From assembly GCA_002269645.1 (NCBI GenBank), contig NIVC01000173.1:186001-250000 (forward strand): a stretch of DNA of 64,000 nt, read 5' to 3'. Shown here piece after piece: positions 6,214-52,900 of the stretch. The number at the start of each line of letters is the position of its first letter. The stretch's first letter is position 1. This DNA comes from Macrostomum lignano (lineage: Eukaryota). The notes under the pieces are model-generated. The model saw only the letters and a list, made by a program, of their open reading frames with translations, was not told the DNA's origin and made no database searches. The translations under genes were made by a program, and so were the position numbers.

Positions 6214-9200
6214 ATGCATCAATTAGCAAAGTCTGGGCAGCATCATCACTCTGCTATTATGAATGGAACTCCAGCTCATAGTCAGCCCAATGCTGGGCCG
6301 CCACATCATCAGCATCATCCAGTACCAATGTCGCCTCATCAACACCTGCCACCAACACCACAGCCGCCCCCATTCTGGTGGCCATTGGGCTCCTATCACG
6401 CTGCCGCCGCTGTCTATCAGGCCCAAAGCGGCAGCAGATATGAACAATTGTATAATCCATTTAGCGGAGCAGCCTATGGCCAGCAGCAGCAACAGCAGGC
6501 TCCGTCGCCTAGTGATGACCAACGGCAGCCCGTTTCCTCTGCTGTTCAACAGTGCGCGCCGCCGCCACTGCCTCAGAATTCTACTCTGACAAGGAATAGC
6601 TCAGCGAACGAGAAGCCATTGACACAGCAGCAGCAGGGGGAGCAATCTTTTTGTGGATTTAAGTGCAAGATCTGTCAGCAGGTGAGCGTTTATTAATTGA
6701 CAGCCAATAGCGAAGATCGATGGATTCAGGATGGGTGGCACAGCTGATCACTAGCTTCAGGAATGGGTGAGACAGCTGATCACTAGCTTCAGGAATGGGT
6801 GAGACAGCTGATCAAAGAGCTTCAGGAATGGGTGAGACAGCTGATCAAAGAGCTCAGGAATGGGTGGCACAGCTGATCAAAGAGCTTCAGGAATGGGTGG
6901 CACAGCTGATCACTAGCTTCAGGAATGGGTGAGACAGCTGATCAAAGAGCTTCAGGAATGGGTGAGACAGCTGATCAAAGAGCTCAGGAATGGGTGGCAC
7001 AGCTGATCAAAGAGCTTCAGGAATGGGTGAGACAGCTGATCAAAGAGCTTCAGGATGGGTGGCACAGCTGATCACTAGCTTCAGGAATGGGTGGCACAGC
7101 TGATCAAAGAGCTTCAGGAATGGGTGGCACAGCTGATCAAAGAGCTTCAGGAATGGGTGGCACAGCTGATCAAAGAGCTTCAGGAATGGGTGAGACAGCT
7201 GATCAGCTTTAGGATGGGTGGCACAGCTGATCAAAGAGCTTCAGGAATGGGTGGCACAGCTGATCAAAGAGCTTCAGGAATGGGTGGCACAGCTGATCAA
7301 AGAGCTTCAGGATGGGTGGCACAGCTGATCAAAGAGCTTCAGGATGGGTGGCACAGCTGATCACTAGCTTCAGGAATGGGTGAGACAGCTGATCACTAGC
7401 TTCAGGAATGGGTGAGACAGCTGATCACTAGCTTCAGGAATGGGTGAGACAGCTGATCAAAGAGCTTCACGAATGGGTGGCACAGCTGATCAAAGAGCTT
7501 CAGGAATGGGTGAGACAGCTGATCAAAGAGCTTTAGAATGGGTGGCACAGCTGATCAAAGAGCTTCAGGAATGGGTGGCACAGCTGATCAAAGAGCTTCA
7601 GGAATGGGTGGCACAGCTGATCAAAGAGCTTCAGGATGGGTGGCACAGCTGATCAAAGAGCTTCAGGATGGGTGGCACAGCTGATCACTAGCTTCAGGAT
7701 GGGTGGCACAGCTGATCAAAGAGCTTCAGGATGGGTGGCACAGCTGATCACTAGCTTCAGGAATGGGTGAGACAGCTGATCACTAGCTTCAGGAATGGGT
7801 GAGACAGCTGATCAAAGAGCTTCAGGAATGGGTGAGACAGCTGATCACTAGCTTCAGGAATGGGTGAGACAGCTGATCAAAGAGCTTCAGGAATGGGTGG
7901 CACAGCTGATCAAAGAGCTTCAGGAATGGGTGAGACAGCTGATCAAAGAGCTTTAGAATGGGTGGCACAGCTGATCAAAGAGTTTCAGGAATGGGTGGCA
8001 CAGCTGATCAAAGAGCTTCAGGAATGGGTGGCACAGCTGATCAAAGAGCTTCAGGATGGGTGGCACAGCTGATCAAAGAGCTTCAGGATGGGTGGCACAG
8101 CTGATCAAAGAGCTTCAGGAATGGGTGGCACAGCTGATCAAAGATCTTCAGGAATGGGTGAAACAGCTGATCAAAGAGCTTCAGGAATGGGTGGCACAGC
8201 TGATCAAAGATCTTCAGGAATGGGTGAAACAACTGATCAAAGAGCTTCAGGAATGGGTGGCACAGCTGATTGTGGTTTGGTTGGAATTTGAACTCGCGAC
8301 AGATTCCCACGCTTTTAATTAACTTGTCGAAGCACAAATAATGGATCCCATGCAATGATGCAACGACCATGTCAAGGAAACAATGGGAATATATAAAGGT
8401 GGCAGTCCTAAACTACGCAAAAAGATTGGATAACAAATTGACCCTCACTTCCGTTTTTTTTTCAAAATTGCGGGACTTAATGCAGAGGTCGTTTAACTTT
8501 TTTTTACCTCAAGGGCTAGATGAATAATCTTTAGATAGAGAAAATAAAAGACAAAAGAGAGAAAGAGTAAAGGAGACAAGAGATTAAAGGAGAGAAGACG
8601 AGAAGAGAAAAGGTATGAGAGCTGAATATATAAACCTTGATCGGGCCGAACAGAATGAAGTGTCAAAGGACCCAAAGGCTGGATAGAGGTTTTGCAACCT
8701 ACTGAGATAAAAGGCATATAAGCGTTTGTATCAGACAGAAATGAAGTTCTGTAGCTAAAATGTATTCTCCACTTGATTCTCTTTTAACCAGAGAGGAGAG
8801 CCTTTAAAGCAGCTGGCTTAGTTATCAACTTAACGCTTTACTGTTCACTGTCTATGGCCCTAAGGTGGTCTGTTCAGCAGCCAATTAGAGAAATCAATCC
8901 TTTCCTCAGTCCGCAAGTCCTCAACAGGAAAATACCAAGACCCAGACTTAGGGTCTTTGTTCTAAACAGTCCTCTTCAAATCTTGAGTCTTGGTTGCCTT
9001 TTCTTGTTTATATAGACTTGTTTTTTTGTCCACTATAAGTCTTTGTTAGGACCAATATTGCTCCCACAATTCTTGTAGTATTATATATACTCGTAGCATA
9101 CCTCCGTGTTTCCTTGACTGGCCAATTGGGGCCAATGCTAAGTAGTGCTAAGTTCACAAGTAATATGCTGGCTTAAGGCTTTGATGTCTATTTATACGAG

Positions 9201-10196
9201 CTAGTTACTAATTTGAACCTCTTAGGAGCCTAACTTCTATAAATTCTATAGGATATACTCAAGAACTACTCAAAGTAGGGCAGGAAACTACGTTTCTTTG
9301 GAAAATTTTAGGAGCCATTTTTTACCGAAAAATTATATTACGGAGAATGGAGGTTTTCATTTTTCTAGCATAAGATTTGTAATTGCTTTTATATCGAATG
9401 TCAGCATGTCAAAAGATGAACATTGGGTCTGCCCCAGTTTTGGTTAAGACCTCAAATCTATCGAATGCGAATGCAATGTTTAATATTTGGAAGCCGGCTT
9501 TTCCCAAGCTGCAATGCATTCCCTGCCTCATCCCCGTTCACCACACGCCAACCGCAGCTCTGCTTCAGCAAGCAGGATCTGCAACAGCACAACAGTGCGG
9601 CGCACAAAACTGACGCCAGGCCGCACCAATGCGACACCTGCGGTAGGCAGTTCGCTACAGCTGCCTACCTGGGCCAGCACAGGCGAATTCACACCGGTCT
9701 GAGGCCGTACGGTTGCAAATTCTGCGACAAGCGATTCACCCAGCTGTCTCATGTGCAGCAGCACGAACGGGTGCACACCGGTGACCGGCCCTATCGTTGC
9801 TGTCACTGCGCCAAAACTTTCGCCCAGATGAGCAACCTGCAGAGTCACCAGCGCCAGCATCAGCGCGACAAGCCGCACAGGTGCGCCGCCTGTCGGGCCT
9901 GCTTTGACACTCGCGACGATTTGGACACGCACACGGCTGCAAAGCACGGCGCCAACAGGTACAGCCGGGTGCTGCTGTGTAGGATCTGCAACAAGGCTTA
10001 CAATTCCGAGACTTATTTGGCTAAGCATCTTAGTAAGCACGAGCAGCAGTATAGGCAGGCTGGCGACGTCGGCGCCGGCACTAGCAAAGATAACGCCGCC
10101 GCTAGCGACGAGGTCGGCGATGTCGGTGGAGGAGTATCGTCCTCGACTGCAGCCGCGGCAGCTGCTGCGGTGGCCGCTTTTAAGTTTCCATTCTAG
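6214..10196 (+). CDS. lin-29: C2H2 zinc-finger transcription factor, rotund/squeeze/lin-29/ZNF362-384 family
   Basis: Exon 6214-6681 (Q/P/H-rich, ends FKCKICQQ|GTGAGC) joins exon 9558-10196 in phase 0 and completes the finger CKIC-x12-HNSAAH. The following fingers (FATAAYLGQHRRIH, FTQLSHVQQHERVH, FAQMSNLQSHQRQH, YNSETYLAKH) match the rotund/lin-29 array. An upstream exon is possible. Confidence 0.85.
6728..8270. repeat. 33/32-bp minisatellite (GGAATGGGTGGCACAGCTGATCAAAGAGCTTCA) in the zinc-finger gene intron
   Basis: Roughly 46 visible units with a few recurring variants. Confidence 0.97.
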
Positions 10197-11871: not shown

Positions 11872-13633
11872 ATGCCAAACTTTCGACGCACACATGAAGA
11901 GAATCGTATCTGGTGCTGCATCCTCTGCTTCCGCAAAGCCGATCGCGTTATTTCAGCTGCTCAGGCAGAACTCATCGAGCAATTTATCCTGCCAGAATTC
12001 TGTCATGCCTACATCCGTAATACTCTGCCAGGAGGCATGTGCAGCTGCTGCAGCAAGAAATTGCAGTCACAGACGTCACCTGTACCACAAGAACTGCCTG
12101 CTCGACTGCCATACCTTCAAATTGTTGCAGACTTGGAGGTTTTGCCACAACTCACACGTGAGCATCCGCACTGCTCCTGCTGTATCTGCCAGGTGGTTTC
12201 CAGCCCATCAAACAAGCGAGTGGCGGTCTGGCACCCATACATGCCTGACAGCAGCCGGGCCAACCATAAATTGCCCCAAGGACGACCTGCATATGCAGAA
12301 ACAACTCGAAGCCAGGAAAGAGACTCGGAGAAGCGCTGCACTAGGTGCTAGGTGGGCAAAGGCCTGAGGCAAGAGTGCAGCGTCTCCAGCAAGTTGCAGT
12401 ACCTGCGCGCGCTCAGCCCTACATCAAAAGAGCACATCGCTCATGACGTAATGCGTGAAAAGCTAAGAGCAGCAGCAGCATCAGGACATGGATCAATGGC
12501 TTCTATTTCCAGTGCCACCGGTGGCCCACCAATGCAGCTGAGGCATGCAAATGATTCAAATGAGCAGAGAGCGCTGAGGACAGAGACACTAGTAACGTTA
12601 AAGACATCTCTCGATCTGAGTGACCGGCAGACAAACATGGCAGCCACAATTATCAGGCAGTCGTAAGGCCGTGCAACCCGGACTGCGGGCAGCCGCAGGC
12701 AGCATCGCGGAGAGTTTTTTTGAGATGCGGCAGCTCAAATTCACTCAAAAGTCCTCAGCAGTGTTGCCACGCCACACTTTGCCCATTTTTCTTCCGCAGC
12801 ATAAGAGAAATTCCGCAGGGTAGAAAAATATGTCCTAACCAATGCAAGCCCTAAAAATGAAGCTAGACACCATTTTTACTACTTTTTAGGTTCACAAACG
12901 CCCTACCCAAGGCTGTTTTGCGCTGGTTCAGATGACCCCCCTAAGCCAGTTTTGAGCTAAAACTTCATCTCGCTGCAACTGATGCAGCTAGCTGTGAATG
13001 CATGCAAGCCGCAAGCGCGCAGGTGAATGGATAAGCAAATTCCATTCTGTATGCTCAGAAATCTTGGTACGAGGAAAGCACAGGGACAGGAAAGGAAGGG
13101 AGAGGGACAGAAAAGGAGAGGACAGGAAAGGAAGGGAGAGGATAGGACAGGAAGGGAGAGGACAGGACAGGAAGGGAGAGGAATAGGAAGGGAAAGGACA
13201 GGAAGGGAGAAGACAGGAAGGGCAGGGATACAATAAAGGTGACGGTGATCAGATGACATCAGGTAGTCTGGATCGAGTATAGAAAATCAGAAAATCACAA
13301 GAACAGTGCAACAAAATCGCAGCATAACAATTTCCACAAAGATATTGAACAACAAACCGAACCAGTAGTCAGTATTGGGGTATTGGGGTATAACATGAGA
13401 GCAAATTCAGAAATGAAAAATTTCCGTAGAGTACGAAAATCCCCTTGATTTTCCGCAGGTCTACTTAAAATTTCCTCACTGCGGAAATTCCGCAGCTAGT
13501 GGGAAGACTGGTCCTCAGGTGGCAGCTTTACTGATACCACAAGATGTTCCGTCATATGCCCCAATCTGCAGGGCCTGCTGAGCTTCATTTGCTCAAAGCG
13601 AGGATTTAGTGAGATCGATGTGAGATTGAAGCT
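11872..13633 (+). pseudogene. Decayed Chapaev/RAG1-N-like DDE transposase, 5' part (interrupted by the pPolB element)
   Basis: N-terminal H-x7-C-x2-C...P-x3-C-x2-C...H-x2-C-x-CC-x-C...GRP zinc-finger pattern (THEENRIWCCILC...LPGGMCSCC...HPHCSCCIC...QGRP). In-frame TAG at 12349 and a frameshift near 12666. The last stretch 13500-13633 reads ...VICPNLQGLLSFICSKRGFSEIDVRLKL. The family name comes from motif memory and was not searched. Confidence 0.65.
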
Positions 13634-14915
13634 ACTACTAAGGACCCATTTATCCGCCCTTTTTGGAGGTGGGGTGGGTGTCAACCCTCCCCGCCTCTCA
13701 TTGGCTGGCGCTCGGCGCGCGCGCGCCGCAGGCGCGTGGCGCCAAGCGCCGACCAGCCGCAGGCGCACCCTCCCGATATGTATGACCACCCTCCCGATAT
13801 GTACCCCGATATGTACCCCGATATGTACACCCTCCCGATATGTATACCCACCCTCCAGAGCAGCAGGCGCCCATGCCGCAGACGCCCATGCCGCCGGCAC
13901 CCCGAGTGTACACTCTCCCAAGTCGCAGGCACCCCGAGTGTACACTCTCCCAAGTCGCAGGCACCCCGAGTGTACACTCTCCCATGTCGCAGGCGCCCCG
14001 AGTGTACACTCCCCCATGCCGCAGGCACCCCGAGTTTACACTCTCCCCAGTACACTCTCCCGATATGTAGTCAGCGATATTAGGCTAGTGAAAACTACTT
14101 ATAGTAGGTGAAATTGCGTATATTTGCATAAAAAAGTAGATAAAACATATTGGTAGGTGTGAATAATGACGCATAATGCATATTAAAATGTACATATTGG
14201 AGCATATGAGCAGCAAAAAACACACAATGTAGGTGCATTTTATCGATATTTTGGCAGAAAAGTAGGTGAAATAGACAAAATAGTAGGTATAATACACAGA
14301 ACCTACTCATTAGTGTAGTAGGCGCTTGTAGATGCTAGTATAATGCAGGTGCATACATACACACAATGTAGGTGCAAATTGAGTATAATACAGGAAAATT
14401 ATAATACATAGCATATAATGTAGGCGCATTTTAAACAATACATTTTGCATATTAACTCGCAGGTACAAATTTCAGTGCATAGGGTAAAATACACACACTG
14501 CAAATTGAGTATAATGCAGGAAAATTGTGACATATACAACATATGTATGCAAAATTAAGCTTATAGGTGCAAAGTAAAATATCAGGCTTCCTAGTAAAGA
14601 GACACGCCCCCAGAGCCAGGGCCGGGGGATCCTAGCGGAGTACAGTTCAGGTAGGAGCGTTCCTAGTCTGCAACCCATAGCTTCCAAATAGGGTACGAGG
14701 GGCCAATGTTTCGAGAGGGGATCCTCAGTACAGTGCGGTCAGAGAGGAGTAACATAGAGAAATTTCTCCCCAAGTCCCAAATAAGGTTTTTTCAAGGGGA
14801 TCCCAAGTACAGTGCGCTCCCTGGTGTCAAATGATGAAGGAATCCCGCCCCCAATGCACAGTGCGCTCCGGGGTGTTAAATGAGGAAGGATCCCGCCCCA
14901 ATGTACAGTGGAGGT
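13634..14915 (+). repeat. Left terminal inverted repeat (1,282 bp)
   Basis: Reverse complement of 21291-22632. Similarity stops after ...ATGTACAGTGGAGGT (14915). Confidence 0.95.
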
Positions 14916-15277
14916 AGAGTAACAGACCGCATACAAAGAGAATTCCAGTCAAACTTTACCGCAGCTCCCACCCCAAATGAGGGTTTTAGTGGATCCCCAG
15001 AGGGTAGCTCTCCAAGTTGAGGGATCCCCCAGTGTGTTGCGAGGCCCAAGTACAGTGCAGGCAGAGAGTAATAGAGTACAAAGAGAAATTCCCTTATCAG
15101 TCAAACTCGAGCTCGATCTTCAGCCAGGGCAGTCTCCTCCTCATCAGCGCTCTCGAAACATCTGTCAAAGTAAAAAATATTCAATGTAGACAGATTATAT
15201 GTAATTTATATACGATTTATATGAAATTAAGCTTACCAAAAATCGGGTTCGCGCTGTACGGATGCGGCACGCCTCAA

Positions 15278-15775
15278 TTAGCAACCCTCGTCAAACAGAT
15301 TTCCCCAAGGGTAGGGTTTGATGCTGTCAAGGCAGTCCTGCAGATTGTCCTCTGTCTTGGCTCGCTTGGCAGACGGTGGGACCTCGGGTGCCAGCTTGAA
15401 GAGCTTGTCCAAACGGGCGGCAAACATCCGGCGCCACAGTTCAGGCGTGAATTCGATCGTGTAGCGCCAATTAAACTTTGGGTCCTGATTGAGCCAATTG
15501 CGCAGCAAACGGATCCTCCCTCGCGAAGCTTCAACTGCCTTGAAATTGCCCAACAGGACCCGCTTGTTCACGTGAAGGCGGGCAGCAGCCTCCAGGTCAG
15601 GGCGCGCAGCTTCGAGCTTCTTCCACTCTGGCTCGCTCAAGTAGATTGCAGGGAAGCCGTCCTTCCACACTCCAGCCTCGTTGGTGTAGAGACGCCGAAT
15701 TTCAATCAAGTTGTGTTCAGTTTCAAATGTGGGCTTCCGCGCCACAAAGTTTTCGTATAGAGAGATAGAAGACAT
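15278..15775 (-). CDS. PC4 (Sub1/p15)-like ssDNA-binding protein with two tandem PC4-like repeats, 165 aa
   Basis: LIEIRRLYTNEAGVWKDGFPAIYLSEPEWKKLEAARPDLEAAARL aligns by eye with the PC4 core ([46 protein letters not shown]). A degenerate second copy follows (LGNFKAVEASRGRIRLLRNW...IEFTPELWRRM). A TATATAAG box lies about 50 bp upstream. Confidence 0.75.
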   Translation of the reverse strand: MSSISLYENFVARKPTFETEHNLIEIRRLYTNEAGVWKDGFPAIYLSEPEWKKLEAARPDLEAAARLHVNKRVLLGNFKAVEASRGRIRLLRNWLNQDPKFNWRYTIEFTPELWRRMFAARLDKLFKLAPEVPPSAKRAKTEDNLQDCLDSIKPYPWGNLFDEGC

Positions 15776-16018
15776 GATTTAGCAGCAGCAGCAGCAGAGA
15801 GCTCTCTGACAGCCGTGCAGCGCCTTATATACCCCCGGATGGAGGGTGGGGTGGGTGGTGATTTTGGGGGTGATTTTTGATGATTTTGGTTGGTTTTTGG
15901 CGATTTATCCAATAACAGGCGAGCTGAGCAGATTTTTTAGTATATATACAGACCCCAGAGCCAGGGTAGAGAGATAATCCTTCTCTCCGCTCGCTCTCTC
16001 ACACTCTCTGTTTGCAAA
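15776..16018. promoter_or_regulatory. Bidirectional promoter between the PC4-like and pPolB genes
   Basis: 243-bp head-to-head spacer with TATATAAG on the minus strand (15824-15831) and TATATATA on the plus strand (15941-15948), each about 50-70 bp before an ATG. Confidence 0.6.
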
Positions 16019-19000
16019 ATGGCTAAACGCAGCGCCACCGCAACTGCTTTCCTGGCTGACAAGAGGCAACGTCTTTATGGTAAGTTTTAATTAATTTCTG
16101 TCTAGACTGTAGTTGCTAGGGTGGGGGTAGGGGCTGAGCAGCAGCAGCAGCTGCAGGGTCTGTGGGACCGCAGAGTAAACAACAAAGACTGCTGCGACAG
16201 CTGCAGGGGTCTAGACTGGAGTTGCTAGGGTGGGGTGCTGCGGCAGGGTCTGTAACAGAGAGTTGCAGGGGAGGGCTAGACAAGTTTCAGCCGGGTGTGT
16301 GCTGATAAGAAATTGCTGCTAGGGGGGTGTTGTCCAGACAGGCTGCAGCTGGGGTGCAAATTGCTGCGACAGAGAGTTGCAGGGGTGAGTAAACAAAGAC
16401 TGGGGTGGGGTGTTGTCTAGACAGGGAGGGGTGTGCTGATAAGAAATTGCTGCAAAAACAGACAGTTGCTAGGGTGCTGCGGCAGATAAGAAATTGCTGC
16501 AGAATCGTTGGGGCAGGCTAGACAAGTTACAGCCGGGTGGGGGCAGAGAGTTGCTGGGACAGACTGGGGCAGACTGATAGGGCGCTACCCAGACAGGCTG
16601 CAGCTAGGTGCAAATTGCTGCGACAGAGAGTTGCAGGGGTGAGTAAACAAAGACTGCTGCGACAGGCTGCAGCGGGGGTGCAGATAAGAAATTGCAGAGA
16701 GTTGCTGCGGGGACAGCAGAGTAAACTCTGTTAAGAAATTGCTGGGGCTAGGGCGGGGAAACACGCTGGGGCCAGGAAAATGACAGATTCTTCTGGTTTT
16801 TTATCTCCTTGTGTTTTTTCAGACGCGTTTGTCCCGCCAACACAGCCGGAATCTGTTACCGGACCGGGTGAGTTATCCCGCCCCCCATTTCCCACACAGA
16901 CCCGCGCTGACTCACACTCCCCCATTCCCCCCATGCAGGTTTTACGGCCCGGCTGGATAATCAGCGTGACCTGCCCAAGTTTAGGGCAAAGGGTGTCGAG
17001 TATGTGGTGCGTATTACCAACACCGAAGATTTGCGGGAGGTGTTTGCCGACATGCTCGAAGTTTTCAAGCAAGATTTGGCTGGTGATGACTTTATGGCCG
17101 CGAAATTCGAGAGCGACAATATGCTCAAAGCGGCCCATACTCCCCCGGTGCGTGCATCCCGCATGACGGCTGAATTGTTGTTTAAGCACATCAACAAGAT
17201 TGTACAGTCGGATGCCACTGTCCTGACGGGCAACTTTTCTATCCGGTTGCTAAAGGCCTGGGTGCCTCGAGGTGGATGTGCTCTCGAGAACAAGCATCTA
17301 GAAGAGAGGCACGCTTTTTCAAAGCACTATGTCCGCATCACCAACTCGGACAAGAGATGCCTGCTGCGCGCTCTGGTCGTGGCCTGCGCCTACCTGCAAT
17401 TCGTGGCCAAGTCCATCACCGAGAAGGTGTGGCGCACAATCAAGGTCAATTCGCCCAAGCAGACTAAGCTGGTGGCTGAGCTACAAATCGAAGCGGGTCT
17501 CTACTCGGTAAGTTTCTAGTATTTTTCTGATAAGAATTTTTACGCAGTATCAGGGAATACTAAAAGAATTTTTACGCAGTATCAGGGAATACTAAAAGAA
17601 TTTTTACACAGTATCATGGAGTACTAAAAGATATATTTTCTGATAAGATTTTTACACAGTATCATGGAATACTAAAAGATATATTTTCTGATAAGATTTT
17701 TTACACAGTATCAGGGAATACTAAAAGAACCATACTCTGATAAGAAATTTTACGATAAGGAACACTAAAAGAAATATTTTACCCTCCACACAGACTCTTC
17801 AAACCGTCTCGCAGGCTGGTCCTTTCGGGGTGGATGCACTGCCCGAAGCGATCCGTGCCCTGAACCGGCTGCATCCGGGGCACGATTTTGGTGTACGCGT
17901 GTACCGCGCAGAGGAGGCCAACAGGTGCATCTTCAACCTGCCTGGCACCGAGATTCTGCACCTGCACCTGGTCGAGCAGCACTTTAATGTGGTTACCAAG
18001 CTGCCTGCGTTTTTCGGCTCCGTGCGCTACTGCCCCAAGTGCGAGATGGCCTACGACTGCGCCAACGCCAAGCACAAGTGTGCGGATGCCTGCAGTACAT
18101 GCAAGACTCCGGGCTCCAACTGTAAGGCAAACCGCGCATATGTAAGATGCCATGATTGCGGGCTAAATTGCTATAATGCTCAGTGCCTAGAAAATCACAA
18201 ACGCAAGAATAAGGCCGGCAGATCGCGCTGTGATTCGGTCCACGTTTGCGGCACGTGTGGCTATCTAGAAGAACTAAAAGTAGGCCAGCCCCCTGAGCAT
18301 CAGTGTGGTTATGCCAAGTGCCCAGTCTGCAAGCAGTACGACGAAACTGCCACCCACGAGTGCTTTGTCACCCCGCCAAAAGCCAAAGAGTCTAGCGCCC
18401 CGTATGTTTACTATGATTTCGAGACGTACTTGGACTCTGGCAAGCAGCACCGGGTACACTTGGTTACGGCTGCCACCTCCTGCGAGGCGTGTCCCAAACT
18501 CTTCCCCAGGCCCCGCTGCAGCGTGTGCGGGGGACTACACAGCTCAGCCAATTGCATTGCGGGACGCAATCTGGCGCTGGATTTTACGAGCTGTGTCTCG
18601 CACAATGACTGTGCCTGTGGGATGCGAGAGTTTGTATCTGTCGGGCCGCACTCTATCGATGCATTTTACTGCTGGCTGACTAGTGTGTTCAAGCAGGGGG
18701 CAATTGCTATTGCGCACAATGGCTCTGCGTATGACGCATTCCTCCTGCTCGGCGCCCTACTCAACGGACTGGCCAAGAAGAAGCCGCAAGTGATCTTCCA
18801 GAACAGCCGCCTAATGTACATGAAGTGCGACAAGATCACCTTCAAGGACAGCCTCAATTTCATCCCTATTGGTCTGGCGCAATTCCCAAAGGCGCTTGGT
18901 TTGGGCACCCAACTGACCAAAGGAGATTTCCCGCACGTGTTTAACCAGCCGGAAAACTGGGGGTACGTGGGACCCTACTGCTCAATTGATATGTACGGCG

Positions 19001-21154
19001 GGAAGAAGAATAAGCAGCATGACTCCATCGCCGACTGGCTGGCCAAGCAGGAGGGACAGGTGTTTAATTTCAATAAGGAGTACCTGGACTACTGCCTGCA
19101 GGACACGTTAATTTTGCGGGAAGGCTGTCTAAAGTACACCCGCCTGATTAAGGACATTTGCGGACTGGACGCATTTGTTCAATCCAACACCATTGCGGGC
19201 TTGGCTATGGCTGTTTTCACCACCAAGTTTATGGAGCCCAACACTCTTGGGGTGATTTCCCGCCGGTCCGATGTACAGTCGCACAAGGCGCGGTGCTGGC
19301 TTGCGCATTTGAATGCAACCGAGTTTGGCGGCCGGTTGCGGACAGCCGATTCTGGCGGCGAGGCTTTCGCCATGGGCCGTAAGGTCGACGGCTTCGACCC
19401 AGAGACCAGGACAGTGCTGCAGTTTCATGGCTGCTTCTACCATGGCTGTCCCAAGTGCTTCCCCAACGGCGACGTGCTGCACCCGCTCAAGAACCAGCCA
19501 ATGCGGGCGATTTATGAGGAGACTGAGCGCTTCACCCGGCTGCTCTCCACTGCCTACAATGTGCGTGTTCTGTGGGAGCACGACTATCAGGACGAGGGAG
19601 CGCCAGTCCAGCAGCCTATTCGCCTGGAGGAAGCCCTGTTTGGCGGCCGTACCGAGGCTTTTGTCCCGCACGCCGAGGCCACCGAGACTGTAGAGCTGCG
19701 CTATCGGGATGTGGTAAGTTTGTACACTTGTACACACACAGTTGACATGCGTTTGAGTTTATCTTATCCTTATCCCCTAGGTGTCGCTCTACCCGACTGT
19801 CAACAAGTTTGACAAGTACCCGGTCGGGCACCCGGTACACCACCCCGAGCCTCATCTACTGGATGAGCTGCAGCTGGCCCGGTATTTTGGCATCGCCGAG
19901 GTGTCGATTCTGCCGCCAACCAATCTCCACATCCCGCTACTGCCCGCCAAGATTAACAAGAAGCTGGTTTTCGGCCTCTGCCGCGTCTGCATGGAGACCC
20001 AGTGCAGCAGCGAGTGTACACACACTGACGCTGAGAGAATGCTCCGCGGCACGTGGTCAACCCCAGAGCTCCACAAAGCCCTGCAGTTGGGTTACAAGCT
20101 GCAGTCAGTTCATGCCCTGGCCTATTGGACCGAGACTCGCACGGGCCTGTTTGCAGATTATGTAAACACTTTTTTGAAGCTCAAAGCCGAGTCTAGCGGT
20201 TCGCCGGGGATGGCTGAGGACGCCAAGGCTGCCTACATGGCCAGCTTTTTCGAGCGCGAAGGCGTCCGGCTGGAAAAGGTGGAGGAGAATCCTGGCTTGC
20301 GCTTTGTGGCCAAGATTTTTCTAAACTCGTAAGTTTTTCTACTTGCAGTGGGGGCCGTGTTTTTCTACTTACAAAAAAAAATTATTTTTCCCTGCAGGCT
20401 CTGGGGCAAATTCTGCCAGCGCGACGACCTGACCTCCACAGAGATTGTGGACAGCTACGAGGCGTGGCTGCAGCGCCTGACCGACCCCTCGATCAAGGTC
20501 AAGTCGTGCGAGCCAATTGGGGAGAGCTTCATGATGCTCGAGTACAAGCCCCGATTTGGCGGTGCTGGCGAGCGGGCGTTCAAGTACGCTAATGTACCTA
20601 TTGGCGTTTTCACCACCTCCCACGCCCGGCTGCGACTCTACGAGGCTCTGGAGGGCCTAGGAACCCGAGTCATTTACGCCGATACCGATTCGTAAGTAAT
20701 TTTTTCACTGTCTCTGTCTCTCTTTCTCCCCTTAACACTTTATTCTCCTCCTCCTCCCAGGGTTGTATACCGCTGCTCCCCGGGCGAGTACGAGCCTCCG
20801 GGTGGTTCGAGTTTGGGGCAGTGGACTGACGAGGTACCTGCTGGCTGCCGCATGGTACAGTTCACCACGGGAGGCCCCAAGCTCTACCGGTACTTAGTGG
20901 AGAAGCCCGACGGGTCGCTGTACTCGGTGCTCAAGTGCAAGGGCATCAGAGTCACCCCCGAGATTTCCGAGCGCGAGGACGAGCTGCAGGAAATTCTGCG
21001 CCACGGCGGGACTGTACGCCTGCCCCAGGCCCAGTTCAGGCGCGATAAGGCTAGCTGTACAATCCGGACCCTCGAGATGGACAAGACTTTCCAGCGCGTA
21101 ATGACTAAGAGGGTGTATGGGGCCGCTAGCCGCCCGTATGGCTTTCGGGAGTGA
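16019..21154 (+). CDS. Protein-primed family B DNA polymerase (Polinton group-2 type), 7 exons, 1,276 aa
   Basis: Exons 16019-16079, 16823-16867, 16939-17507, 17794-19713, 19781-20328, 20398-20691 and 20761-21154 total 3,831 nt with all GT-AG borders and no stops. Motifs: ExoI YYDFET, ExoII AHNGSAYD, FKDSLNF, KGDFPH, ExoIII YCLQD, Vsr-like insert VDG...FHGCFYHGC, motif A RDVVSLYP, motif B KIFLNSLWGKF, motif C YADTDS, and pPolB-type C-terminal GPKLY, LKCKG and RPYGF. Confidence 0.95.
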
Positions 21155-21290
21155 GTGAAAGATAAGGATCTATCTTTTTTACGCCTCCCTGCCTGGGATT
21201 CCCCTATGTGCCCACTTGGGATCCCTTGACTCGTGGGGATGAAAATGGTTTTACGCCCGCACTGTACTTAGGGGTCCTTACTCATTTGGC

Positions 21291-22632
21291 ACCTCCACTG
21301 TACATTGAGCGGGATCCTTCCTCATTTAACACCCCGGAGCGCACTGTGCATTGGGGGGCGGGATTCCTTCATCATTTGACACCAGGGAGCGCACTGTACT
21401 TGGGATCCCCTTGAAAAAACCTTATTTGGGGCTTGGGGAGGAATTGGAATTTCTCTCTGCCCTCACTGTACTTGGGATCCCCTTGAAAAAACCTTATTTG
21501 GGGCTTGGGGAGGAATTTCTCTATGTTACTCCTCTCTGACCGCACTGTACTGAGGATCCCCTCTCGAAACATTGGCCCCTCGTACCCTATTTGGAAGCTA
21601 TGGGTTGCAGACTAGGAACGCTCCTACCTGAACTGTACTCCGCTAGGATCCCCCGGCCCTGGCTCTGGGGGCGTGTCTCTTTACTAGGAAGCCTGATATT
21701 TTACTTTGCACCTATAAGCTTAATTTTGCATACATATGTTGTATATGTCACAATTTTCCTGCATTATACTCAATTTGCAGTGTGTGTATTTTACCCTATG
21801 CACTGAAATTTGTACCTGCGAGTTAATATGCAAAATGTATTGTTTAAAATGCGCCTACATTATATGCTATGTATTATAATTTTCCTGTATTATACTCAAT
21901 TTGCACCTACATTGTGTGTATGTATGCACCTGCATTATACTAGCATCTACAAGCGCCTACTACACTAATGAGTAGGTTCTGTGTATTATACCTACTATTT
22001 TGTCTATTTCACCTACTTTTCTGCCAAAATATCGATAAAATGCACCTACATTGTGTGTTTTTTGCTGCTTATATGCTCCAATATGTACATTTTAATATGC
22101 ATTATGCGTCATTATTCACACCTACCAATATGTTTTATCTACTTTTTTATGCAAATATACGCAATTTCACCTACTATAAGTAGTTTTCACTAGCCTAATA
22201 TCGCTGACTACATATCGGGAGAGTGTACTGGGGAGAGTGTACACTCGGGGTGCCTGCGGCATGGGGGAGTGTACACTCGGGGCGCCTGCGACATGGGAGA
22301 GTGTACACTCGGGGTGCCTGCGACTTGGGAGAGTGTACACTCGGGGTGCCTGCGACTTGGGAGAGTGTACACTCGGGGTGCCGGCGGCATGGGCGTCTGC
22401 GGCATGGGCGCCTGCTGCTCTGGAGGGTGGGTATACATATCGGGAGGGTGTACATATCGGGGTACATATCGGGAGGGTGGGCATACATATCGGGAGGGTG
22501 CGCCTGCGGCTGGTCGGCGCTTGGCGCCACGCGCCTGCGGCGCGCGCGCGCCGAGCGCCAGCCAATGAGAGGCGGGGAGGGTTGACACCCACCCCACCTC
22601 CAAAAAGGGCGGATAAATGGGTCCTTAGTAGT
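21291..22632 (-). repeat. Right terminal inverted repeat (1,342 bp)
   Basis: Matches the left TIR except for a handful of substitutions or 1-bp indels, one fewer 12-bp GTACCCCGATAT unit and an extra 72-bp duplication (units starting at 21392 and 21464). Confidence 0.95.
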
Positions 22633-22898
22633 GAAGCTGGGGATGGATGGAGGTGGTGGCTCGCTAAAAATCTGCCTTAGTGTCGCCCCAGTACGAGCTA
22701 CTGCCTACTGAACAACAGGCAGAGTCAACACCTAAGAAGCTGAGCAGGGAGTCACAAATAAGCAACTTTGGCGTAAAAAAACTGTTTATCATCGCAATTG
22801 CTGAGGATGTCCAGGAGAACTATGCAAATGTGCGAGCACTTCTAGATGAGCTAGACTTGACATCGATTAAGTTCACAGTCGCTTGCAACACTGGCTGA
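22633..22898 (+). pseudogene. Decayed Chapaev/RAG1-N-like transposase, 3' part (catalytic-core start)
   Basis: Continues the left flank in frame as GMDGGGGSLKICLSV. After a frameshift it reads FGVKKLFIIAIAEDVQENYANVRALLDELDL...FTVAC and then breaks off. Confidence 0.7.
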
Positions 22899-49901: not shown

Positions 49902-52900
49902 CACTCTACCATTTGTATTTGGAAACTATACATAACTATACATGCAAATATTATAACTTCGCTTATAATAAACAGAGCTATTATTGCATTGCCTTTGCGT
50001 TATAACAACTGAGGCTTGAATAATATTAGAGTTTCGCTACGCTGCGCATTTGCGCCGCTTGAAAATGAAGAATCAGAGCCTTCTAATTCTGCTGGAATCA
50101 ACTGCTACATTTCAACTGCCGTCGGTTGGGTAGCGGAAGAGCAGTGAAGTTTAGAAGGTAGAGGCGGAGAGACAGACCGGAGAGAAAGGAGAGAGAAGAG
50201 GGGAGAGAGAAGAGGGGAGAGAGAAGAGGGGAGAGAGGAGAGAGGAGAGGGGAAAGAGGAGAGAGGAGAAATGAGAGAGGAGAGATGAGAGAGGAGGGGG
50301 AAGATGAGAGATGAGAGAGGAGAGGGGAAAGAGGAGAGAAGAGAGATGAGAGAGGAGAGATGAGAGAGGAGAGGGGAAAGAGGAGAGAAGAGAGAGGACA
50401 GAGGACAGAGGGGAGAGAGGAGAGAGTAGAGAGGAGAGAAGAGACAGGAGGGAGGAGAATATAGATAAAAGAAAAGAAGAGAGAAAAGAGAGAATAGGAG
50501 CGCATCCTCTGGACGAGGAAGGCCAGAAGTGTTCCATAGGGCAATGTCAGATACAAACGCAACGATATGAAAGGAGCAAATACACTGCTTGAGTAGATTC
50601 AAATGGTTGAAATTCTTCTGAATGCTAAACACTGAAGAAATGTAATGAAAAGTTCAGTTTTTTGTTGCTTGTTTGACAAGTATACGAAAAGTAACTAAAA
50701 ACCAACTTAACTTCTAAACCGCGGCAATACAGGAGCGCCAGCAAAAGTACATGCTGCCCTTGGAAGGCCTTCGGGTTCGCGACGGCGAGAACCGATTGTT
50801 CAGCAAAAGAAGCGTCATCGTGCTCTTCAACGCTGATGGCAGGTTGGAGCTACGATCTGCATTAAAAACTTGAAGATTCGTAGTACTAATAGAAACATCG
50901 TATTGAAAGTCATAGTGTAACTACTGTGAGTAGAAACGGTGAAATTTAAATCTAGAAAACGTTTGAATTACCTGAACAGAAACACGTACAAAGACTGCAA
51001 GAGTCTGGAGCTTGCGGCCGAGTCAGCCGACGATGTCGACACTTGGAAGGCGGCGCTGCTTCGCGCTGGAGTTTATCCAGAGGGTGACGAGGAGGAGAAA
51101 GAGGAGGTGCGAGAAATGCAAGCAAGTGTTTGCTTTGTTACCTCACTCCGCATCCACCTCCCTCCGCACCCACCTCACTCCTCAACCACCTCACTCTGCA
51201 ACCACCTCACTCCTCGCCCACCTCACTCCTTACCCACCTCACTCCTCACCCACCTCACTCCTCACCCATCTCACTCCTCAACCACCTCACCCCTCACCCA
51301 CCTCGTTTCTCAAACACCTCACTCCTTACCCACCTCACTCCTCACCCACCTCACTCCTCAACCACCTCACTCCTCACCCACCTCACTCCTCACCCACCTC
51401 ACTCCTCAACCACCTCACTCCTTACCCACCTCACTCCTCACCCACCTCACTCCTTACCCACCTCACTCCTTACCCACCTCACTCCTCACCCACCTCACTC
51501 CTCAACCACCTCACTCCTCACCCACCTCACTCCTCGCCCACCTCGCTCCTCGCCCACCTCACTCCTCAACCACCTCACTCCGCATCCACCTCCCTCCGCA
51601 CCGTACATAATTCGTTCTCCTGTCACAGAGACTACGGATATCTATGTTAATATTTACTGCCAAGAATAAAATTATTGGATCAATACAACTCTTACTCATC
51701 AAACTCGCACTCAACCAGGCTAGAAGCAGCAGTATAGAGGAGGAAACCCTGGACCCGTCCATGGAGCGTCAAGTTGAGACAATCCGGAGTTTGGCCAAAT
51801 CCTACATGCGCATAGTGGACAAAGCGCAACGAGACTTTGTGCCAAAGACCATCATTCACATGGTGGTTAATGACGTAGGCTTTGGGATGTGCAAATTCTG
51901 TCTTAAATATGACTAATTCTTACAATTATGTCACAGTTTAGGACGGAGGTTTGTCTGGATCTAGAATGGGTTGCTTTGAATCGAGATGAGAGAATGTGGG
52001 TAAAGAGTGAGGTGGATAAGATGTGTGAAGTGGTTGAGGAATGATGCGGGTGAGGGGTGAGGTGGGTGAGGAGTGAGGTGGGTGAGGAGTGAGGTGGGTG
52101 AGAAGTGAGGTGGGTGAGGAGTTAGGTGGGTAAGGAGTGAGGTGGGTGAGGAGTGAGGTGGTTGAGGAGTGAGGTGGGTGAGGAGTGAGGTGGTTGAGGA
52201 GTGAGGTGGGTGAGGAGTGAGGTGGTTGAGGAGTGAGGTGGGTGAGGAGTGAGGTGGGTAAGGAGTGAGGTGTTTGAGAAACGAGGTGGGTGAGGAGTGA
52301 GTTGGGTGAGGAGTGAGGTGGGTGAGGAATGAGGTAGTTGAGGAGTGAGGTGTTTGAGAAACGAGGTGGGTGAGGAGTGAGTTGGGTGAGGAGTGAGGTG
52401 GGTGAGGAGTGAGGTGGGTGAGTGAGGTGGGTGAGGAGGGAGGTGGGTAAGGAGCGAATTGGTTGAAGAGTGAGGTGGTTGAGGAGTGAGGTGGTTGAGG
52501 AGTGAGGTGGTTGAGGAGTGAGGTGGTTGAGGAGTGAGGTGGTTGAGGAGTGAGGTGGTTGAGGAGTGAGGTGGTTGAGGAGTGAGGTGGTTGAGGAGTG
52601 AGGTGGTTGAGGAGTGAGGTGGTTGAGGAGTGAGGTGGTTGAGGAGTGAGGTGGTTGAGGAGTGAGGTGGTTGAGGAGTGAGGTGGTTGAGGAGTGGGTG
52701 AGTGAGGAGTGAGGTGGGTGAGGAGTGAGGTGATTGCAGAGAGAGTGATTCAGATGCGAGGCCAATACCCACCACAAAGGCACTGAAATAAAATCGCTCC
52801 CCTTCCGCCACAACGCAGCTGAGATCATTCCTGAAGACGTCGCTGCCAGTGCAGCTGTACAGCTGCTCCGACCAGGCCAGCCTGATGGAGGAATCCGAGG

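Follow-up and report, generated by a model that had tools for sequence, protein, structure and literature searches.

Polintons, or Mavericks, are defined by a polymerase and an integrase carried on one molecule. Their non-autonomous derivatives are gene-less elements with terminal inverted repeats (TIRs) that are mobilized in trans via their terminal sequences, and each of the two linear plasmids pGKL1 and pGKL2 has a polymerase gene of its own. In vertebrate Mavericks, a module of polymerase, ATPase and PZ genes and a module of integrase, capsid and protease genes share one molecule (PMC8097293). Bidnaviruses such as Bombyx mori bidensovirus consist of two linear segments with a conserved terminal structure, one of which encodes a Polinton-derived PolB (PMC4061559), and the Alpha-class PolBs of adintoviruses match the bidnavirus PolB strongly (PMC8502044). 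Here we describe an 8,999-bp element in a 64,000-nucleotide stretch of the genome of the flatworm Macrostomum lignano (contig NIVC01000173.1, positions 186,001 to 250,000; hereafter the window), together with a partner family, B1. The two probably form a bipartite, mutually complementing Polinton whose genes are split over two separately integrating elements. The element in the window, segment A, is most likely the replication half, and B1 the half that bears the integrase and virion genes.

The element spans positions 13634-22632 of the window and is bounded by long TIRs and a 6-bp target-site duplication (TSD). An earlier note on this DNA had described a 9.0-kb unit with near-identical TIRs, a perfect 6-bp TSD and an intact, spliced pPolB gene, all of which were borne out (8,999 bp; 1,276 amino acids). 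The only genes in A are pPolB and a PC4-family gene. The note's claim that no integrase or capsid lies inside also stood: 14 proteins of one full Polinton from the same genome revealed no integrase, capsid, ATPase or protease remnants at E<0.1, and the interior matched none of nine partner-element samples at E<=1e-4.

Segment A is a multi-copy mobile family and no decaying one-off. Genome searches with pPolB exon 4 gave at least 70 matches (69 of 229 candidates scored), and part of exon 5 gave 113 (all 117 candidates scored). Among 20 loci fetched at terminus matches, 13 had the layout of PC4 plus pPolB, five were gene-less TIR elements and two were cut by the fetched range or a contig end. 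The PC4 gene was present in all 13 full polymerase copies fetched, and most A copies measured 8.5-10.1 kb. Every A copy with both ends (10 of 10, at nine distinct sites) had a perfect 6-bp TSD, which answers the note's proposal to look for copies of the same layout at different TSDs; so did four of four gene-less elements, a class that includes L011, L017, L018 and L028. The A polymerase is under purifying selection, with an exon-4 dN/dS of 0.06-0.16 in eight of nine ungapped copies compared with the window copy; the ninth was identical. Three probable RNA runs, each from a different study (X12, X14 and X16, whose RNA label is a guess), yielded contigs in which introns 1, 2, 3 and 5 were spliced out; intron 4 was spliced in two of the runs, and the single DNA run showed none of the splice joints of introns 1-5. 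As these transcripts differ in letters from the window copy, they indicate expression of the family rather than of that copy. An element-free site was found at contig level in four of four sequencing runs; its flank carries several differences and may represent a paralogous repeat or another haplotype.

The ends of A led to its partner. Across all copies, the first seven bases of the terminus (13634-13680) are near-invariant, positions ~8-29 differ by subfamily and the GC-rich block right after them is near-invariant. A-type ACT termini matched two search patterns 102 and 26 times in the genome, against 9 and 0 matches for reversed controls. The three longest unexplained terminus pairs, C56, C4 and C2210, were sampled. 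Capsid and integrase genes in the C4 and C2210 samples defined family B1. The 18.4-kb pair at C56 was rejected as a full-length helper, its nine samples consisting of gene-less TIR sequence and tandem repeats. An integrase search gave at least 28 B1 loci at >=96% identity and at least 28 loci of a sister family, B2, at 72-96% identity to B1, together 56 of the best 150 of 285 candidates. Both families had matching capsid and ORF X (open reading frame X) matches.

The B1 gene set comprises an integrase (several copies in open 379-aa frames), a double-jelly-roll capsid (open over 443 aa in many copies), a penton-like gene, an adenain-type protease (seen in the C976 sample), ORF X and further ORFs. 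The penton-like identity is weak, with 1 of 200 shuffles equally good, and ORF X had no Pfam or Atlas match. Structure modeling supports the double-jelly-roll assignment of the B capsid: the model of a 79%-identical relative (pLDDT 54) folds like the double-jelly-roll proteins of Sputnik, PBCV-1 and mavirus (E 6e-12). A profile of the capsid relative matched the canonical Polinton capsid (E 2.5e-49) and gave no match among PDB sequences. Two copies with no evident insertions, C976 and C1711, measured 10,568 and 10,304 bp; C4 and C2210 are ~3.4 kb longer, and C4 holds a P-type transposase. Three of four B1 copies had perfect 6-bp TSDs. The distance from one terminus to the ORF X start was 2.3-2.5 kb in five copies and that from the end of the capsid fragment to the other terminus 1.9-2.1 kb in five copies, with the 6.0 kb between filled by ORF X, integrase, penton-like gene and capsid. 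This spacing leaves no room for a 3.8-kb polymerase.

Polymerase and integrase were partitioned between the two kinds of element. When the 56 partner integrases were compared in position with 104 pPolB loci, no pair was as close as 40 kb (100 loci from the exon-5 search, after 13 second fragments were dropped, and four from the exon-4 search); three shared a contig with a pPolB, at 44, 169 and 466 kb. Likewise, 43 terminus pairs drawn from 126 listed termini comprised 18 with pPolB, four with B1, 21 with neither and none with both. The ends are nonetheless shared. By eye, B1 copy C4 is bounded by the same 21-nt terminus as the element in the window. Another terminal variant occurs both in seven A contigs and in two B1 copies, C2210 and C355, and a third variant, in B1, differs from A termini by a single base. 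A and B1, the latter as sampled, fit complementary gene sets on separate elements with shared termini. The earlier note had expected the integrase to come from elsewhere, consistent with its absence from A and presence on B1. Its integrase-bearing helper with the same termini was found in part: B1 shares the ends but is polymerase-less, and no autonomous full Polinton emerged. Its view of A as a satellite or hyperparasite of a helper Polinton found no support in that form: B1 is itself without a polymerase, so the relation looks mutual.

Many of the ACT-ended pairs that lack both polymerase and B genes are 8-10 kb long, near the size of A and B1 (C93, C176, C303, C558:43471, C1575, C1607 and C2944). 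They may be passengers without genes that are subject to a size limit, or they may constitute a third segment. Of the elements fetched, L011 and L028 are similar in size and consist mostly of long palindromes. The gene-less ACT-ended element L018 holds a 338-aa frame (L018:1317-2330) that resembles a mariner-type transposase.

The features of the element are as follows.

13628..13633, no strand: left TSD copy, 6 bp, identical to 22633-22638
13634..14915, + strand: left TIR, 1,282 bp, doubled ACT trinucleotide at its start
15278..15775, - strand: PC4-family gene by sequence, 165 aa, divergent from pPolB
15790..16018, no strand: predicted divergent promoter region, TATA-like boxes near 15825-15831 (-) and 15941-15948 (+)
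16019..16079, + strand: pPolB exon 1; joint 16078>16822 in 3/3 probable RNA runs and 0/1 DNA run
16823..16867, + strand: pPolB exon 2, 45 bp; joint 16866>16938 in 3/3 probable RNA runs
16939..17507, + strand: pPolB exon 3; joint 17504>17793 in 3/3 probable RNA runs
17794..19713, + strand: pPolB exon 4, with cysteine-rich region, exonuclease motifs, VSR-like insert and start of motif A
19781..20328, + strand: pPolB exon 5, palm; joints 19712>19780 (2/3 runs) and 20328>20398 (3/3)
20398..20691, + strand: pPolB exon 6, motifs B and C
20761..21154, + strand: pPolB exon 7 with stop codon; intron-6 joint not among the joints listed
21291..22632, - strand: right TIR, 1,342 bp
22633..22638, no strand: right TSD copy, 6 bp, identical to 13628-13633

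The two TIRs differ by five mismatches over 1,269 aligned columns, by indels of 12 and 71 bp and by single-base gaps. The left TIR (13634..14915) would serve as both replication origin and integrase end. In several A copies the left and right ends are of different terminal variants; with respect to the genes, C1165 has its two variants the other way round from C24, C811, C2932 and C4072. Such swaps would fit an exchange of ends between co-replicating linear molecules. Beyond the element, positions 24400-62200 of the window are densely filled with minisatellite arrays, two of which, with 16-bp units, form an inverted pair at 51140-52700.

The pPolB gene has seven exons and six GT-AG introns, in phase, giving 3,831 nt (1,276 aa plus stop) with no internal stop. 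Exons 4 and 5 matched PF03175 (DNA_pol_B_2) above the Pfam cut-off (E 4.7e-15 and 1.2e-12, respectively). Exon 3 probably encodes a terminal-protein and vOTU region, by analogy with the protein-primed polymerases whose terminal-protein/vOTU architecture is described in PMC11161782. The phylogenetic check proposed in the note placed pPolB among animal Polinton-type pPolBs in a quick tree of 51 rows, in which it joined the second host subfamily with a support of 96. Outside host-like matches, the best relatives of exon 4 had ~30-40% identity.

The note's PC4-like second gene was upheld at the level of profiles. Compared directly with Pfam PC4, the 165-aa protein scored below the cut-off (E 0.034); a six-row profile, one row of which is a Polinton relative, matched PC4 structures at E 1.7e-6, and a 32% homologue in canonical Polintons cleared the Pfam PC4 cut-off. 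The nearest Atlas clusters, PC4 of Preplasmiviricota at 0.87-0.88, serve as a lead only, and the single-sequence fold was of low confidence (pLDDT 49.6). The nearest database proteins, at 66-100% identity, are from Macrostomum lignano. On sequence grounds we assign the gene to the PC4 family and regard its product as a candidate single-stranded DNA (ssDNA)-binding protein. It is under weaker constraint than pPolB exon 4. By eye, its TATA-like box and leader look like those upstream of B1 ORF X. A further PC4-like family with 38% identity is dispersed and in tandem (C1753:183984-211974; C1176:237401), and two of its copies sit 10-11 kb from broken A-type PC4 genes.

A second polymerase subfamily with 63-70% identity, A2 (C2286 and C1485), was considered as a helper and rejected, the two loci read giving no integrase or capsid match. 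A LINE is inserted in one of them, a palindromic satellite block lies in the other, and element termini were not found at either. The LINE frame in an A2 polymerase looks intact (L029:1110-5783; 1,558 aa, with endonuclease, reverse transcriptase and RNase H); it occupies the first-exon region, in frame with an apparent start. An A copy that the assembly contains twice, with one and the same TSD, sits in a capsid gene of a third Polinton family (L015:60-233 and 9054-9212; L021:102-1046 and 9625-9819), whose capsid is ~30% identical to both the canonical and the B capsids.

B-type capsids with 77-79% identity were found on environmental or run contigs of 1.8-3.9 kb (P0196, P0197 and P0198), so B-like elements exist beyond the M. 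lignano genome; no B capsid relatives were found in viral contigs. A set of 23 metagenome loci with 21-44% identity, along with two polymerase contigs of 13-15 kb, settled no link between the B capsid and a polymerase class. At C841:424117 and C2255:124039, a degenerate ORF X is preceded at a distance of ~1 kb by an ATPase fragment with 83% identity to the canonical gene; these are possibly chimeras, or a trace of a former B-type ATPase site.

We infer complementation between the segments, free linear DNA and virions, along the following lines. Copies of A and B1 would be expressed in one germ-line nucleus, where the terminal-protein/polymerase of A would prime at the shared ACT-repeat ends. 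Strand displacement could then copy A, B1 and the gene-less elements, the displaced strand being covered by PC4, and the B1 integrase would insert all three. The shared ends would act as the cis signal for both replication and integration, and termini could be swapped between co-replicating molecules. The B1 capsid may package either segment; no packaging ATPase was located. An extension of this model is tentative, and we hold it to be doubtful: A and B1 may be the two segments of a bipartite double-stranded DNA (dsDNA) virus that belongs to the Polinton/adintovirus lineage. A small double-jelly-roll capsid would enclose each segment, each would integrate independently in the flatworm germ line, and the 7-10-kb gene-less elements would be defective passengers of a size to fit the same capsid.

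Several observations weigh against a bipartite Polinton. Sequence shared by A and B1 was seen for the outermost 16-21 nt alone, and the first 467 bp of A as query gave no B1 copy in the best 40 of 297 candidates. The B1 map is assembled from 13 samples of 0.3-0.6 kb and match coordinates, with no end-to-end copy. In the fourth B1 copy, the six bases were repeated after four extra, an offset duplication. The expression evidence concerns the A family alone. The packaging ATPase was not found in A or the B1 samples, and a genome search for it was swamped by other families (best 150 of 352 candidates scored). The metagenome comparison gave no demonstration that A and B1 descend from one ancestor. 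Finally, the exon-5 polymerase search reached down to ~48% identity, so that a more distant polymerase in B2 would escape it, and in B2 copies C251 and C3051 an ACT-type terminus lies 8.3-8.7 kb from ORF X.

The reach of that search and the long B2 stretch would suit A, and B1 with it, being satellites of an autonomous ACT-ended Polinton, for example a B2 whose extra ~8 kb encodes a distant polymerase, as in the model of the earlier note; the sister family is as numerous as noted above. We consider this unlikely. Three 241-bp samples from the C251 stretch beyond ORF X matched no polymerase, the two inner ones having stops in all six frames, and no related polymerase was found less than 40 kb from a B2 locus. 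Nor would the purifying selection on the A polymerase be explained if the helper had one itself.

Canonical Polintons are numerous in this genome (at least 117 integrase and at least 97 capsid matches), and the one at C664 encodes integrase, capsid, protease, ATPase, PC4 and polymerase. A could conceivably borrow integrase, and possibly ATPase or capsid, from them, with B1 an unrelated defective family. This is a still less probable explanation. C664 and C6 end in an AGT-type repeat, the type common among Polintons and the reverse of the ACT-repeat-first ends of A (PMC8097293), and neither has nucleotide similarity to the element. The C664 polymerase contains an endonuclease VII domain and is of another class. 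B1, by contrast, has terminal variants exactly in common with A, and its own replication would need a polymerase recognizing those ends. For want of any nucleotide match, the canonical Polintons examined were also rejected as colinear parents of A. The C664 Polinton carries an unusual cargo, a TATA-binding-protein-like gene (L034:579-1091; Pfam TBP E 3.9e-24).

The VSR-like insert in pPolB, reminiscent of marine mollusc and nematode polymerases (PMC10748475), raises self-integration of A by this nuclease or by host repair, with B1 as a one-way parasite. We judge this very unlikely, as the 6-bp TSD is perfect in each of the 14 A or gene-less copies for which both ends are defined, the signature of the retroviral-type integrase of Polintons (PMC8097293), and B1, which encodes such an integrase, has the same TSD length. 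Simple decay of a full Polinton by deletion, which the stops, frameshifts or insertions in several A copies might suggest, is largely refuted, in agreement with the earlier note, by the recurrence of the two-gene layout in different places, in 13 of the 20 loci fetched, by dN/dS well below 1, by splicing and by the lack of any colinear full-length parent.

A full-text literature search, made without most subscription papers and without Repbase and Dfam, turned up neither a split Polinton nor any work on Polintons in M. lignano, and passages of PMC13215967, PMC6431247, bioRxiv 10.64898/2026.10.13.758929 and bioRxiv 10.1101/2022.07.12.499685 describe no such pair. A or B may possibly have been catalogued earlier as separate repeats. 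Surveys demanding several core genes within 20 kb (PMC10748475) would miss both halves, and split pairs may therefore be under-counted. If a stable bipartite Polinton with mutually dependent halves is what A and B1 represent, replication and integration would be efficient in trans, with the terminus as the sole need in cis. The pair would then be a real intermediate for the passage from Polinton to capsid-less linear plasmid and from Polinton to bipartite bidnavirus. Under the virus reading, the pair would count as a segmented preplasmiviricot, a present-day counterpart of the step behind bipartite bidnaviruses. How Polintons replicate and whether they form particles are long-open questions; with a laboratory flatworm as the likely host and a transcribed family, both could be addressed by observation and knock-down.

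Set beside known systems, A resembles Polintons and Mavericks in its pfam03175-type pPolB, long TIRs, 6-bp TSDs and trinucleotide-repeat ends, and A and B1 combined add the integrase, double-jelly-roll capsid, penton-like protein and protease. Taken together, the two have what defines a Polinton except the ATPase, which was not located. B1 closely matches the integrase-capsid-protease module of vertebrate Mavericks, carried there on one strand (PMC8097293). A differs in having no integrase, capsid or protease on the same element, and elements of ~9 and ~10.5 kb replace a single one of 13-25 kb, although their sum falls within that range. Like the pGKL linear plasmids, A is a capsid-less pPolB replicon, those plasmids being derived from Polintons via loss of the virion module; unlike them, it is nuclear (spliceosomal introns and TATA-like promoters), integrated with TSDs and accompanied by a capsid and integrase partner. 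In contrast to non-autonomous Polinton derivatives, A keeps a selected and spliced polymerase, and so contributes a function rather than just using one. Bidnaviruses are ssDNA viruses with a parvovirus-type capsid, an SF3 helicase, no integrase and no integration, whereas A and B1 are integrated dsDNA with an integrase and a double-jelly-roll capsid, and the genes of A are pPolB and PC4 alone. With two linear parts that have conserved ends, one alone encoding PolB, bidnaviruses are still the nearest precedent for the segmentation seen here.

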